From a virus (taxonomy: Duplodnaviria; Heunggongvirae; Uroviricota; Caudoviricetes), in the IMG/VR virus record IMGVR_UViG_2660238600_000004: a stretch of 6,870 nucleotides of DNA, one strand, 5' to 3'. The notes under the pieces are model-generated. The model saw nothing but the letters and a program-made list of their open reading frames with translations. It ran no database searches and had not been told where the DNA came from. The position numbers and the translations under genes are program-made. Each line of letters starts with the position of its first letter. Within the stretch, counting starts at the first letter, position 1. Below, piece by piece: positions 2,931-6,870 of this stretch.

Positions 2931-2962
2931 CAGATAAAAGAAATCCTCGTCAGTGCGAGGAT
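2931..2962 (-). terminator. Candidate intrinsic terminator for leftward transcription (7-bp stem atcctcg/cgaggat, 6-nt loop, then a U-rich tract on the minus strand)
   Basis: Inverted repeat at 2943-2949 / 2956-2962. On the minus strand it is followed by TTTCTTTTATCTG (plus 2931-2942). No folding energy was computed. Confidence 0.35.
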
Positions 2963-3134
2963 GCTGTTCATTGCTGCTATACACTTTTTTGCTCTCAACG
3001 TAAGCGGTAGCCCATTCTGTTGGGTTGGTGCAGTTGCTTTTAGGAAATGCTATTTACCCCTTAAATGTCGGCTGAAAGAGCTAAAATCCATGCAAAAAAT
3101 TTACGCAATTTTGTGTATTATTGTGCAGTAAGTA

Positions 3135-3737
3135 ATGAGCTATTTTCTGCGCAAAAAATGGATGGTAAATTTGTCCGGGTCAGGAAAAATTTTATGGGCG
3201 CTAAACATGAAAAAAGATTCGTATCCTTATTTGATTTGCATGACAGTTTCAGGGCTGATCTTTATTTTCCTTTTCTTCTGGTGGCGGGCAGATATCTACA
3301 GGGTCACGTTTCTTAATCAGAGTATATCCCACTATTACATTCTGTTTAGCATGGGAATAGCTTTTCTGTTATCTCTGTTTTGGGTTAAGAAGGGGATAGT
3401 AAAACAAAGCGGCTGGAAGAGTCTGTCAGCATACATTAAGGTTTATGCAGGGATGTGCATATTTGCTGGATTTTTTCTGATTATACCCCTTACGACACTA
3501 ACTTATTTTTTGCCTGGAGAGACATCGTCTTATGTTGCACCGTATCGGTATACTTCCGGTAGTTCAAAAAGTTGTTCTGGAGCTGAGGTGGATGACCCCG
3601 ATCTACATGAGAATATTCGCATTTGCTATCCGTATGGCAATTATGAGTACGATAATATTATCTATGTTGAAAAGAAAATTAATATATTAGGTGCGGTAGT
3701 GACATATGCACAGACCGCGCGTGATGATACTGAATGA
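3135..3737 (+). CDS. Hypothetical membrane protein, 200 aa: three predicted N-terminal TM helices plus an ~75-aa C-terminal soluble domain; AT-rich moron on the strand opposite the early-left operon
   Basis: Complete ORF. Hydrophobic stretches PYLICMTVSGLIFIFLFFWW, SHYYILFSMGIAFLLSLFWV and YIKVYAGMCIFAGFFLIIPLTTLTYFL. Base composition is visibly more AT-rich than the flanking lambda-like DNA. A hairpin terminator follows. Start codon is uncertain (in-frame ATGs at 3135, 3162 and 3207, none with a strong SD). I recognise no family. Confidence 0.6.
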   Translation: MSYFLRKKWMVNLSGSGKILWALNMKKDSYPYLICMTVSGLIFIFLFFWWRADIYRVTFLNQSISHYYILFSMGIAFLLSLFWVKKGIVKQSGWKSLSAYIKVYAGMCIFAGFFLIIPLTTLTYFLPGETSSYVAPYRYTSGSSKSCSGAEVDDPDLHENIRICYPYGNYEYDNIIYVEKKINILGAVVTYAQTARDDTE

Positions 3738-3771: not shown

Positions 3772-3806
3772 TCGAGGTAATATAATTTACCTCGACTCGT
3801 TTGTTC
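3772..3806 (+). terminator. Candidate intrinsic terminator downstream of the membrane-protein gene (9-bp stem tcgaggtaa/ttacctcga, loop tataat, T-rich tail)
   Basis: Perfect inverted repeat at 3772-3780 / 3787-3795, followed by ctcgtttgttctgg. It lies 35 nt after the stop codon at 3735-3737. Confidence 0.45.
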
Positions 3807-3947: not shown

Positions 3948-4169
3948 TCACTTCGAACCTCTCTGTTTACTGATAAGCTCCAGATCTTGCTGGCAACTGG
4001 CACAAGTCCGACAACCCTGAACGGCCAGTCGTCTTCGTTCATCTATCGGATCGCCACACTCACAACAATGAGTGGCAGATATAGCCTGGTGGTTCAGGCG
4101 GCGCATTTTTATTGCTGTGTTGCGCTGTAATTCTTCAATTTCTGATGCTGAATCAATTATGTCTGCCAT
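3948..4169 (-). CDS. TraR/DksA-family C4 zinc-finger protein, 73 aa (lambdoid TraR-like, Orf73-type)
   Basis: ORF MADIIDSASEIEELQRNTAIKMRRLNHQAISATHCCECGDPIDERRRLAVQGCRTCASCQQDLELISKQRGSK. The CxxC-N17-CxxC spacing and length are typical of F-plasmid TraR and phage TraR-like RNA-polymerase-binding proteins. Confidence 0.8.
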   Translation of the reverse strand: MADIIDSASEIEELQRNTAIKMRRLNHQAISATHCCECGDPIDERRRLAVQGCRTCASCQQDLELISKQRGSK

Positions 4170-4220
4170 CTTTCATTAATCCCTGAATTGTTGGTTAATA
4201 CGCTTGAGGGTGAATGCGAA

Positions 4221-4246
4221 TAATAAAAAAGGAGCCTGTAGCTCCC
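4221..4246 (-). terminator. Candidate short intrinsic terminator on the minus strand (GGAGC-5 nt-GCTCC followed by TTTTTTTATT on the minus strand)
   Basis: Inverted repeat at 4231-4235 / 4241-4245 with a run of seven A at 4224-4230 on the plus strand. The stem is only 5 bp, so this is weak. Confidence 0.3.
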
Positions 4247-4267
4247 TGATGATTTTGCTTTTCATGT

Positions 4268-4483
4268 TCACCGTTCCTTAAAGACGCCGTTCAACATGCC
4301 GATCGCCAGGCTTAAATGAGTCGGTGTGAATCCCATCAGCGTTACCGTTTCGCGGTGCTTCTTTAGTACGCTACGGCAAATGTCATCGACGTTTTTATCC
4401 GGAAACTGCTGTCTGGCTTTTTTGATTTCAGAATTAGCCTGACGGGCAATGCTGCGAAGGGCGTTTTCTTGCTGAGGTGTCAT
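4268..4483 (-). CDS. Hypothetical small protein, 71 aa (alternative upstream start at 4549 gives 93 aa)
   Basis: ORF MTPQQENALRSIARQANSEIKKARQQFPDKNVDDICRSVLKKHRETVTLMGFTPTHLSLAIGMLNGVFKER. The ATG at 4481-4483 overlaps the stop of the upstream micro-ORF (ATGA), suggesting translational coupling. No family recognised. Confidence 0.45.
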   Translation of the reverse strand: MTPQQENALRSIARQANSEIKKARQQFPDKNVDDICRSVLKKHRETVTLMGFTPTHLSLAIGMLNGVFKER

Positions 4484-4563
4484 TGAACAAGCCCCATGTC
4501 GGCAAGCATAAGCACACAGAATATGAAGCCCGCTGCCAGAAAAATGCATTCAGTGGTTGTCAT
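4480..4563 (-). CDS. Candidate hydrophobic micro-ORF, 27 aa (MTTTECIFLAAGFIFCVLMLADMGLVQ), translationally coupled on both sides
   Basis: Its ATG at 4561-4563 overlaps the orf63-like stop (ATGA) and its TGA overlaps the next ATG (ATGA). The peptide has one predicted TM-like segment. It is below the ORF-track size cutoff. It could instead be a coupling artefact, and its frame overlaps the N-terminal extension of the 93-aa version of the next ORF. Confidence 0.3.
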   Translation of the reverse strand: MTTTECIFLAAGFIFCVLMLADMGLVQ

Positions 4564-4751
4564 ACCTGGTCTCTCTCATCTGCTTCTGCTTTCGCCACCA
4601 TCATTTCCAGCTTTTGTGAAAGGGATGCGGCTAACGTATGAAATTCTTCGTCTGTTTCTACTGGTATTGGCACAAACCTGACTCCAATTTGAGCGAGGCT
4701 ATGTGCCATCTCGATACTCGTTCTTAACTCAACGGGAGATGCTTTGTGCAT
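4560..4751 (-). CDS. Small hypothetical protein, 63 aa (lambda orf63-like by size and position)
   Basis: [66 protein letters not shown]. Its length (192 nt with stop) and 28-nt overlap with the upstream ORF match the orf63/orf60a arrangement I recall for lambda. Confidence 0.55.
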   Translation of the reverse strand: MHKASPVELRTSIEMAHSLAQIGVRFVPIPVETDEEFHTLAASLSQKLEMMVAKAEADERDQV

Positions 4752-4906
4752 ACAGCTCCCCGTTTATTATTTATCTCCTCAGCCAGCCGCTGTGCTTTCA
4801 GGGGATTTCTGATAACAGAAAGGCCGGGAAATACCCAGCCTCGCTTTGTAATGGAGTAGACGAAAGTGATCGCGCCTACCCGGATATTATCGTGAGGATG
4901 CGTCAT
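4724..4906 (-). CDS. Small hypothetical protein, 60 aa (lambda orf60a-like); start chosen at the ATG overlapping the exo stop
   Basis: [63 protein letters not shown]. The track begins it two codons earlier (4912). The ATG at 4904-4906 forms an ATGA overlap with the exo stop, matching the 4-nt exo/orf60a overlap in lambda. Confidence 0.5.
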
Positions 4907-5583
4907 CGCCATTGCTCCCCAAATACAAAACCAATTTCAGCCAGTGCCTCGTCCATTTTTTCGATGAACTCCGGCACCATCTCGTCAAAACTCGCCATGT
5001 AATTTTCATCCCGCTCAACCACGACATAATGCAGGCCTTCACGCTTCATTCGTGGGTCATAGTTGGCAAAGTACCAGGCATCTTTTCGCGTCACCCACAT
5101 GCTGTACTGCACCTGGGCCATGTAAGCCGACTTTATGGCCTCGAAACCACCGAGCCGGAATTTCATGAAATCCCGGGAGGTAAACGGGCATTTCAGCTCA
5201 AGGCCATTGCCGTCACTGCATAAACCATCGGGAGAGCAGGCGGTGCGCATACTTTCGTCGCGATAGATGATCGGGGATTCAATAACATTTACGCCGGAAG
5301 TGAACTCAAACAGGGTTCTGGCGTCGTTCTCGTACTGTTTTCCCCAGGCCAGCGCTTTAGCGTTAACTTCCGGAGCCACACCGGTGCAAACCTCAGCCAG
5401 CAGGGTGTGGAAGTAGGACATTTTCATGTCAGGCCACTTCTTTCCTGATCGGGGCTTTGCTATCACGTTGTGAACTTCTGAAGCGGTGATGACGCCGAGC
5501 CGTAATTTGTGCCATGCATCATCCCCCTGTTCGACAGCTCTCACGTCGATCCCGGTACGCTGCAGGATAATGTCCGGTGTCAT
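4903..5583 (-). CDS. exo: Lambda exonuclease (Red-alpha, 5'-3' dsDNA exonuclease), 226 aa, intact
   Basis: [71 protein letters not shown]...[10 protein letters not shown], recognised as lambda Exo. Its start overlaps the bet stop in ATGA fashion. Confidence 0.95.
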
Positions 5584-5774
5584 GCTGCCACCTTCTGCTC
5601 AGTGGCTTTCTGTTTCAGGAATCCAAGAGCTTTCACTGCTTCGGCCTGTGTCAGTTCTGACGATGCGCGAATGTCGCGGCGAAATATCTGGGAACAGAGC
5701 GGCAATAAGTCGTCATCCCATGTTTTATCCAGGGCAATCAGCAGAGTGTTAATCTCCTGCATGGTTTCATCGTT
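5580..5774 (-). pseudogene. bet: 3' fragment of bet (Red-beta), C-terminal ~64 codons only; N-terminal ~200 codons absent
   Basis: The minus frame reads ...[64 protein letters not shown], matching the lambda Bet C-terminus as I recall it. Immediately upstream the frame reads SYPAQPS after a stop at 5796-5798, instead of the Bet sequence (..ERDITPV..). Homology therefore ends near 5775. Confidence 0.8.
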
Positions 5775-5797
5775 ACTTGGTTGAGCAGGATAGCTTC

Positions 5798-5980
5798 ATG
5801 GCTAGGTTGGCTGAAATGGAAAAGGAACTCAGTGAGGCAAAACAGGCTGTCATTCTCAACGCACCACGCCACCAGAAACTGAAGGAAATTAGTGAAGGTA
5901 TTGTGTCGATGTTTCGTGTGGACCCAGATCTGGCTGGTCCATTGATGGCGATGGTTACTACCATGCTGGGGGCGATATGA
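5798..5980 (+). CDS. Hypothetical small protein, 60 aa (MARLAEMEKELSEAKQAVILNAPRHQKLKEISEGIVSMFRVDPDLAGPLMAMVTTMLGAI); possibly a remnant of a gene upstream of O
   Basis: ORF with AGGA 7 nt upstream of the ATG at 5798. The track starts it at a TTG at 5777. It lies exactly at the bet truncation joint. No HTH or known family recognised. Confidence 0.3.
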   Translation: MARLAEMEKELSEAKQAVILNAPRHQKLKEISEGIVSMFRVDPDLAGPLMAMVTTMLGAI

Positions 5981-6066
5981 CAGGTTCAGAAATGGCGAAA
6001 GCCGGTCTGCTGGAACAGAACCGACTTTCAGGTGCAAATCGTAACACACTCATTGCGGGAGGAATT

Positions 6067-6870
6067 ATGGCAAACACTGCTGAGATATTCAATTTTCCAG
6101 TGCCGGATGCGGCACAAAAGGAGCCGCGCGTGGCAGATCTCGATGATGGTTATACGCGCATTGCAAATGAGTTGCTGGAAGCTGTGATGCTGGCCGGATT
6201 AACACAGCACCAGCTTCTGGTCTTCCTAGCTGTCATGCGCAAAACATATGGCTTTAATAAAAAACTGGATTGGGTGAGCAACGAGCAACTGTCCGAATTG
6301 ACCGGGATATTGCCGCACAAGTGTTCTGCTGCAAAAAGTGTTCTGGTAAAGCGTGGGATTCTTATTCAGAGCGGGCGGAATACCGGCATTAATAATGTGG
6401 TCAGTGAATGGTCAACATTACCCGAATCAGGTAAGAAAAATAAAGTTTACCTGAAAGAGGTAAATTTACCTGAATCAGGTAAAAAAAGTTTACCCAAATC
6501 AGGTAAAGACGTTTACCCGAATCAGGTAAACACAAAAGACAAACTAACAAAAGACAATATAAAACCTTTTTCGTCCGAGAATTCTGGCGAATCCTCTGAC
6601 CAGCCAGAAAACGACCTTCCTGTGGAGAAACCAGATGCTGCAATTCAGAGCGGCAGCAGGTGGGGGACAGCAGAAGACCTGACCGCCGCAGAGTGGATGT
6701 TTGACATGGTGAAGACCATCGCGCCATCAGCCAGAAAACCGAATTTTGCAGGGTGGGCTATACCGCCAGCTTGGTTGATAAAAAATGGTTGCGACTGGCA
6801 GCAAGGAGGAGTCATGGCTGATTTGAGAAAAGCAGCGCGTGGTCGGGAATGCCAGGTAAGAATCCCTGGC
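6067..6870 (+). CDS. Lambdoid O-family replication initiator (N-terminal iteron-binding domain plus internal origin); 3' end not defined in window
   Basis: GGGAGGA SD at 6056-6062 and ATG at 6067. Translation MANTAEIFNFPVPDAAQKEPRVADLDDGYTRIANELLEAVMLAGLTQHQLLVFLAVMRKTYGFNKKLDWVSNEQLSELTG...VSEW parallels the lambda O N-terminus (MTNTAKILNF...VADLDDGYARLSNMLLEA...LRKTYGWNKPMD...SQLSEIT...ISEW). The frame stays open to the window end. Sequence after about 6755 appears to derive from ninE/ybcO-like DNA, so the native 3' end is probably missing. Confidence 0.8.
   Translation, partial: MANTAEIFNFPVPDAAQKEPRVADLDDGYTRIANELLEAVMLAGLTQHQLLVFLAVMRKTYGFNKKLDWVSNEQLSELTGILPHKCSAAKSVLVKRGILIQSGRNTGINNVVSEWSTLPESGKKNKVYLKEVNLPESGKKSLPKSGKDVYPNQVNTKDKLTKDNIKPFSSENSGESSDQPENDLPVEKPDAAIQSGSRWGTAEDLTAAEWMFDMVKTIAPSARKPNFAGWAIPPAWLIKNGCDWQQGGVMADLRKAARGRECQVRIPG
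6417..6530. repeat. Replication-origin iterons: five ~19-bp direct repeats, consensus TTTACCYRAATCAGGTAAA, each an internal dyad (TTTACC..GGTAAA)
   Basis: Copies at about 6417-6435, 6446-6464, 6465-6483, 6489-6507 and 6512-6530, all inside the O-like coding frame. They encode a repeated LPESGKK-like peptide. Layout is as in ori-lambda but the repeat sequence differs. Confidence 0.8.
6531..6590. other. AT-rich tract immediately after the iterons (candidate DNA-unwinding region of the origin)
   Basis: cacaaaagacaaactaacaaaagacaatataaaacctttttcgtcc is strongly A/T-rich. Its position relative to the iterons mirrors ori-lambda. Confidence 0.6.
6756..6821 (+). pseudogene. ninE-like 3' fragment (reads ..GYTASLVDKKWLRLAARRSHG-stop); no in-frame start codon upstream
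   Basis: The frame ending in TGA at 6819-6821 gives a C-terminus I recall from prophage NinE proteins. The same frame has a stop at 6702-6704 and no ATG after it. The stop overlaps the next ATG (ATGGCTGA). Identity is from memory. Confidence 0.4.
6814..6870 (+). CDS. YbcO-like (DUF1364, cysteine-rich putative nuclease of the nin region) protein, 5' end only; continues beyond window
   Basis: Strong SD AAGGAGGA at 6802-6809 and ATG at 6814. MADLRKAARGRECQVRIPG matches the N-terminus I recall for E. coli DLP12 YbcO. Confidence 0.5.
   Translation, partial: MADLRKAARGRECQVRIPG

Follow-up and report, generated by a model that had tools for sequence, protein, structure and literature searches.

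A conserved 27-codon open reading frame between orf63 and orf61 of the lambdoid exo-xis block probably encodes a small hydrophobic peptide

This analysis concerns a stretch of 6,870 nucleotides from the virus record IMGVR_UViG_2660238600_000004 (the whole stretch is called the window) and, within it, an open reading frame (ORF) of 27 codons plus stop (84 nt; 4480..4563, minus strand), here called the micro-ORF. The region studied represents a lambdoid phage's exo-xis block, with 99.6–100% identity to phage mEp332; bases 4100–5000 have 100% identity to Escherichia phage mEp332 and are matched at at least 90% identity by 187 phage records, and the corresponding DNA of phage lambda is about 97% identical. 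All genes of the exo-xis chain, from exo to orf73, lie on the minus strand. The micro-ORF is preceded by exo (lambda exonuclease, YqaJ domain, assigned by Pfam and the annotation of relatives; 4903..5583), an orf60a-like gene (DUF1317; Pfam PF07026, E=2e-39; 4724..4906, with 60 aa from the ATG at 4906, or 62 aa if read from 4912) and an orf63-like gene (DUF1382, 63 aa; Pfam PF07131, E=3e-31, annotated in relatives; 4560..4751), and is followed by orf61 proper (71 aa, MTPQQENALRSIARQ...; 4268..4483), for which the same start is annotated in mEp332 and by the prokaryotic genome annotation pipeline (PGAP). Successive genes share bases. The exo stop (TGA, 4905–4903) overlaps the orf60a ATG (4906–4904) as ATGA; orf60a (stop 4726–4724) and orf63 (ATG 4751–4749) overlap by 28 nt; the orf63 stop (TGA, 4562–4560) and the micro-ORF start (ATG, 4563–4561) form the ATGA at 4560–4563; and the micro-ORF stop (TGA, 4482–4480) and the ATG of the 71-aa orf61 (4483–4481) form a further ATGA at 4480–4483. 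The chain extends upstream, through an ATGA common to a bet remnant and exo (5583–5580), and downstream, where the orf61 stop and the GTG of a 31-aa ORF share GTGA (4271–4268); from bet to orf73 there is no gap of more than 6 nt when the micro-ORF and the 31-aa ORF are counted. The original prediction had described the part of this chain from exo to the 71-aa ORF, and every coordinate and overlap in it was reproduced, along with the strongly hydrophobic 27-aa translation, MTTTECIFLAAGFIFCVLMLADMGLVQ.

We examined which reading frame across the micro-ORF is under selection. Loci were drawn from annotated phages, complete E. coli genomes and IMG/VR contigs; 225 loci, representing 31 micro-ORF haplotypes, entered a substitution test, and 214 loci, representing 91 haplotypes of the micro-ORF plus orf61, entered a frequency analysis from which a gapped, error-laden locus was left out. 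There were 29 distinct substitutions inside the micro-ORF, with 16 of the 29 at codon position 3 of its own frame. Scored in that frame they comprise 15 synonymous and 14 nonsynonymous changes (15S:14N; expected synonymous 25%; p=0.002), and for variants present in at least three loci the count is 11S:2N; singleton variants may include sequencing errors. The same 29 substitutions scored in the frame of a longer, 93-aa orf61 model (8S:21N, p=0.41) or in the third frame (6S:23N) are indistinguishable from neutral. In the micro-ORF, synonymous variants are spread over more haplotypes than are nonsynonymous variants (Mann-Whitney p=0.0013, 91 haplotypes). The substitution test applied to the neighbours gave p=9e-4 for the 71-aa orf61, p=0.11 for orf63, whose protein has a solved nuclear magnetic resonance structure (PMC10869804), and p=0.086 for orf60a, so that the coding signature of the micro-ORF is at least as strong as that of the accepted flanking genes. 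Replacements within the peptide are mostly conservative (F8L, A10V, A21V/S, T3A/I). When the 76 interior bases were shuffled with both ATGA junctions fixed, 31% of the shuffles were open and 0.2% were both open and as hydrophobic; frame-specific conservation is the stronger argument against chance. As judged from these substitution patterns, purifying selection acts on the amino-acid sequence in the micro-ORF frame only, and from this we infer that the micro-ORF is translated.

The original prediction had proposed that conservation of the frame and of its ATGA overlaps be looked for across lambdoid genomes, and both were found. The micro-ORF is intact, with 27 codons, in 90 of the 91 haplotypes, the exception having a stop one codon early, and 197 of 226 loci (87%) encode the same peptide. 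None of the 225 loci has lost the upstream ATGA, whether it stands behind orf63 (of which there are several alleles) or behind a Dam methylase gene (17 loci), and the overlap between the micro-ORF and orf61 is ATGA in 78 of the 91 haplotypes and GTGA in the other 13; both junctions are thus maintained even with a different upstream gene. In phage PhiR30_1 and E. coli SCU-111 an unrelated N6-adenine methyltransferase (Dam) gene stands in place of orf63; homology to the window starts exactly at the ATG of the micro-ORF, and the TGA of the methylase overlaps it as ATGA. A strong GGAGG Shine-Dalgarno (SD) sequence precedes the micro-ORF ATG in the Dam context (-10.3 kcal/mol); that in the window is modest (-5.6 kcal/mol). 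Among 5426 complete E. coli genomes the interior of the micro-ORF was present at 4246 places in 3142 genomes (~58%), and the 3' part of orf61 at 4398 places. The 493-bp stretch from orf63 to orf61 is 94–100% identical among related phage genomes. Judging from these comparisons, the micro-ORF and orf61 usually travel together but are separable.

Some copies depart from this arrangement. Decayed copies include an IS3 insertion sequence (IS) inside the micro-ORF (E. coli EC13, locus 701–753) and an IS inside orf61 (GCA_026134875, locus 253–1500), and in one IMG/VR contig a rearrangement removed the 5' half of the micro-ORF. Klebsiella phages with the DUF1382 gene have a 101-aa gene where the micro-ORF would be. 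Homologues of orf61 at 51–73% identity were considered as divergent relatives and set aside, these being frameshift-ridden assemblies, an IS-interrupted copy or a truncated prophage remnant. Assemblies filed under the names Shewanella, Bradyrhizobium, Paenibacillus, Pseudomonas, Kitasatospora and others also contained the orf63 allele of lambda with its flanks, in many cases on contigs of ~48 kb or of low coverage; its presence in such unrelated genomes is almost certainly contamination of public genomes by lambda control DNA.

The peptide has a grand average of hydropathy (GRAVY) of 1.62 and ranks first by this measure among the 49 ATG-initiated ORFs of 20–46 aa in the window; its best 19-aa Kyte-Doolittle mean is 2.33. 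Its uncharged apolar core is 16 residues long, C6–A21 (CIFLAAGFIFCVLMLA), with a Hessa-scale sum of -3.4; the best windows of 19–21 residues include D22 and sum to about 0 on the same scale (the hydrophobicity scales were applied with published values, and an apolar segment of ~18–20 residues was taken as the criterion for spanning the bilayer). The peptide contains no K, R or H, its only charged side chains are those of E5 and D22, and its net charge is -2; a positively charged flank, as the positive-inside rule would have for a single-pass membrane protein, was sought in the peptide and none was found. Its composition makes a location in the inner membrane plausible.

Comparison of the peptide with Pfam (E<=0.1) and PADLOC returned no family, including toxin or holin families; comparison with NCBIfam and PHROGs returned only noise (MtrF at E=0.034; a PHROG 'membrane protein' at E=0.68), and Rfam searched over the region likewise gave noise and no family. 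The suggestion that the micro-ORF is too small to be called by standard ORF finders is mostly true, since the peptide has no entry in the lambda reference, in the sampled RefSeq E. coli annotations or in the small-gene supplement for enterohaemorrhagic E. coli Sakai, and none was found in the exo-xis papers examined; it is not true throughout, as protein databases already contain the identical sequence under the name 'hypothetical protein [Escherichia coli]' (UniRef A0A0A2SGE8, 981 contigs), which a few GenBank records use as well. The 90% cluster that contains the peptide also takes in two unrelated 428-aa glycosyltransferase-like proteins, a clustering artefact.

Taken together, we consider it probable that 4480–4563 on the minus strand is a genuine gene of the early pL operon, encoding a 27-residue hydrophobic and acidic peptide that is made by coupled translation and is likely to have a role at the membrane. 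Ribosomes ending orf63 (or the Dam methylase gene) would stop at a TGA that shares bases with the ATG of the peptide and re-initiate there; those ending the peptide at the TGA that overlaps the orf61 ATG or GTG would in turn feed translation of the 71-aa Orf61. The peptide would most likely enter the inner membrane as one short helix formed by CIFLAAGFIFCVLMLA, and would act there in early lytic development, with the membrane itself or a membrane protein of the host as its target. We infer coupling, membrane insertion and any host effect, the first of these from the weak SD of orf61 and the conserved geometry of the overlaps. Selection on the peptide sequence itself implies that the peptide does something beyond relaying ribosomes.

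Several observations weigh against this interpretation. In phage SfI the orf61 homologue begins with another N-terminus and the micro-ORF is missing, so orf61 has no strict need of it. The depth of the comparison is shallow: all relatives are E. coli/Shigella lambdoid sequences at least 92% identical, no divergent homologue was found by tblastn of 50,697 phage records (E<=10), which returned only copies at least 92% identical, and with so little divergence the selection test has 29 substitutions to draw on. That the core forms a canonical transmembrane helix is not assured, because the apolar core is 16 residues long, positive flanks are lacking and any span of 19–21 residues takes in an Asp. 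Lambda ribosome profiling (Liu et al. 2013), as far as it is summarised in PMC8614690, adds only ORFs of 7 and 31 aa in the block; any ribosome footprints on the micro-ORF would in that case have been assigned to 'orf61'. Lastly, the promoter region of the operon is deleted in the window, so the copy of the micro-ORF here may be silent. The window ceases to be colinear with mEp332 at 5775, within bet, and continues with a YdaT/cII-like gene and O, with a 4-nt overlap of the two alignments at the junction (5772–5775); the bet remnant (5580–5762) retains only the last ~60 bet codons, and to the right of the junction (5772–6760) lie the 3' part of the cII-labelled/YdaT-like gene and then replication gene O. 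The segment from gam through cro with pL (gam, kil, cIII, N, pL, cI, cro, pR) is deleted, and the window is therefore a deletion derivative or a defective prophage; the junction of bet with the YdaT-like gene was found in one piece in none of the complete E. coli genomes of the collection.

The micro-ORF could also be a chance frame lying over the 5' end of a 93-aa orf61 that starts at 4549, as the original prediction had allowed. That longer ORF is open in the window, is annotated in AP005153 and others, is the length upon which PHROG 303 was built, and is common in protein databases. Its additional 22 codons (4484..4549, minus strand) behave as neutral in that frame, since the substitutions give 8S:21N and 11 of the 13 common variants change a residue, whereas the 15S:14N of the micro-ORF places purifying selection in the other frame. 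The codon just before the 93-aa ATG is TGA in the window, and GGA or AGA in other haplotypes (i.e., stop, Gly or Arg), and the start has no well-placed SD, the best being -3.8 kcal/mol at 13 nt upstream. RefSeq/PGAP and mEp332 start orf61 at the equivalent of 4483, leaving 76 nt without annotation, exactly the space that the micro-ORF takes up, and variants with replaced N-termini all begin at the 71-aa position. The 71-aa Orf61 was modelled by AlphaFold2 as three helices with a mean predicted local distance difference test score (pLDDT) of 88 and a predicted template modelling score of 0.73; in the 93-aa form the 22-residue extension models at pLDDT 43–52 versus 75–91 for the remainder, and 'orf61' when overexpressed was insoluble (PMC6213356). 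We consider the 93-aa gene to be very improbable. With a neutral 93-aa frame and a coding signal in the frame of the micro-ORF, the comparisons place the start of orf61 at 4483 and its length at 71 aa, and the extension was rejected on its neutral substitutions and low pLDDT. The name 'cell division protein ZapA', which PGAP gives to many copies of orf61, appears unsupported: the match to PF05164 scored 15.7 bits against a cut-off of 23.8 and covered 33 residues, and a Foldseek search of the 71-aa fold against the PDB gave nothing at E<=0.001 and no ZapA.

Two further explanations were considered. The 76-nt stretch might be an untranslated spacer, conserved through recent divergence of the prophages or as an RNA or regulatory element; RefSeq has no annotation there, overall divergence in the block is low, and a weak sigma-70-like promoter, p2, was predicted within the ~400 bp searched upstream of orf73 (PMC4195576). 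Neither a spacer nor an RNA structure predicts the three-base periodicity of the variation, in which codon position 3 of one frame takes 16 of the 29 substitutions; that frame stays open in 90 of the 91 haplotypes, no Rfam match was obtained, and a scan of the minus strand gave no promoter-like site in the micro-ORF. This explanation, too, is improbable, though by a little less than the 93-aa gene. Somewhat easier to entertain, yet still unlikely, is that the micro-ORF is translated solely to carry ribosomes from orf63 or dam to a weak orf61 start, with a peptide that has no function of its own. Such a relay would account for the perfectly conserved 4-nt overlaps at both junctions, for the weak start of orf61 (SD of -4.7 kcal/mol; GTG in 13 haplotypes), and for the movement of the micro-ORF and orf61 as a module behind different upstream genes. 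A relay needs only an open frame, yet the amino acids themselves are kept (11S:2N among common variants; identity in 87% of loci), the replacements are few, rare and mostly conservative (F8L, A10V, A21V/S), and the SfI homologue of orf61 does without a relay ORF.

A coding micro-ORF also bears on the annotation of 'orf61' elsewhere. The 93-aa model is that of the 'orf61' of Shiga toxin (Stx) phages, vb_24B_7c and phrog_303, and is also used in the exo-xis literature. In the lambda reference NC_001416 the A-run of orf61 (the 4418–4424 region of the window) has 7 A rather than the 6 A present in 191 of 215 loci, and this extra A means that orf61 is frameshifted there. The annotated lambda orf61 (NP_040613, 61 aa, MRETRYDNHGMHFSGSGLHILCAYACRHGTCSMTPQQ...SQTAVSG) is a composite, made up of the final 20 nt of orf63, the micro-ORF out of frame, 22 true orf61 codons and a frameshifted tail. 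By this alignment both the lambda 'orf61' and the 93-aa 'orf61' of Stx phages read the micro-ORF in the wrong frame. To Donaldson (PMC8614690) the Orf61 of lambda appeared 'truncated' and unstructured, and overexpression of 'orf61' gave Dydecka et al. (PMC6213356) insoluble aggregates; both observations fit a composite, or wrong-start, reading.

Deletion of orf61 was reported to yield more lysogens and altered induction, i.e., a 'pro-lytic' role for the gene (PMC6213356). In the published Delta-orf61 mutants the annotated ORF was swapped for a scar, so that these mutants are also without the peptide gene, and part of the phenotype could be due to its loss, especially in lambda with its frameshifted orf61. 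Although lambda PaPa has a frameshift in the true orf61, deletion of the interval raised lysogenisation and altered induction, which makes the peptide a candidate effector. That the peptide rather than Orf61 is the effector of the 'pro-lytic' phenotype in lambda, acting in the inner membrane to bias the lysis-lysogeny decision, is nonetheless doubtful in our estimation; a target such as the FtsH/HflKC machinery, which sets CII stability, is pure speculation. A tie between the peptide and the 'bin' block of host replication initiation was considered and rejected, as that block is assigned to orf73, ea22, ea8.5 and orf55 (PMC9239242).

Small inner-membrane proteins of enterobacteria and their phages, of the kind brought out in the Hemm/Storz-type surveys, are among the closest comparisons. 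These include single-helix regulators of 20–50 aa that act on larger membrane proteins. The peptide resembles them in its 27-aa length and one dominant hydrophobic segment, in having escaped standard annotation, in its operon position and in its probable coupling to neighbours; it differs in lacking a sequence family and positive flanks, in its net charge of -2 and in having 16 uninterrupted apolar residues. Judged by its sequence, the peptide adds a new and so far unstudied member to an already known class, the small hydrophobic proteins of phages and bacteria. Lambda Kil is similarly a small, laboratory-dispensable, early lytic product of the same N-antiterminated pL operon. Kil and T7 Gp0.4 are described as blocking cell division through FtsZ (PMC11323111); the micro-ORF peptide, unlike these FtsZ-acting proteins, is strongly hydrophobic. 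The type I toxins (Hok, TisB, Ldr, Ibs, ShoB) are likewise short hydrophobic peptides on mobile elements, but they are basic and belong to stand-alone toxin/antisense loci, whereas the peptide is acidic and embedded in a polycistronic operon; it has no Pfam match to such families, and no antisense RNA family was found (Rfam). The annotated orf61 entries (lambda, 61 aa; Stx, 93 aa; vb_24B_7c; PHROG 303 / 26061) occupy the same DNA and read the micro-ORF in another frame.

Other features of the block were noted. The 31-aa ORF (4176..4271, minus strand) has a GTG start here and ATG in lambda, and is annotated in mEp332, 434, 4A7 and SfI; it is probably the 31-aa 'orf2313' cited in PMC8614690 from lambda ribosome profiling. 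Its coding signature is equivocal (8S:13N, p=0.089), and it holds an intrinsic-terminator-like hairpin (4247–4229) with a T-run, which is the t2 of PMC4195576; a second terminator-like hairpin, t1 of the same study, lies inside the orf60a-like gene (4842–4820). The last gene of the conserved block is orf73 (3948..4169, minus strand; Pfam PF01258, E=5e-9), which encodes a TraR/DksA-like zinc-finger protein and has been characterised in lambda (PMC9239242). Where lambda has ea22 and ea8.5 the window has a plus-strand cassette (2961–3737) with a 56-aa ORF and a 200-aa predicted multi-pass membrane protein; it carries its own terminator-like hairpin (3772–3795), gave no Pfam or PADLOC match, and looks like a moron.

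Lambda is the best-studied temperate phage, and its exo-xis block is actively studied for the lysogeny and induction of Shiga-toxin prophages, in a literature that works with seven ORFs including an 'orf61' of 61 or 93 aa. If the micro-ORF is a gene as proposed, the Orf61 that was modelled, overexpressed (insoluble) and assayed by yeast two-hybrid had the wrong N-terminus, and every published Delta-orf61 phenotype would be confounded by loss of the peptide gene and probably also by lost downstream coupling. Lambda and every Stx phage would then gain a conserved gene, one that more than half of the complete E. coli genomes carry.

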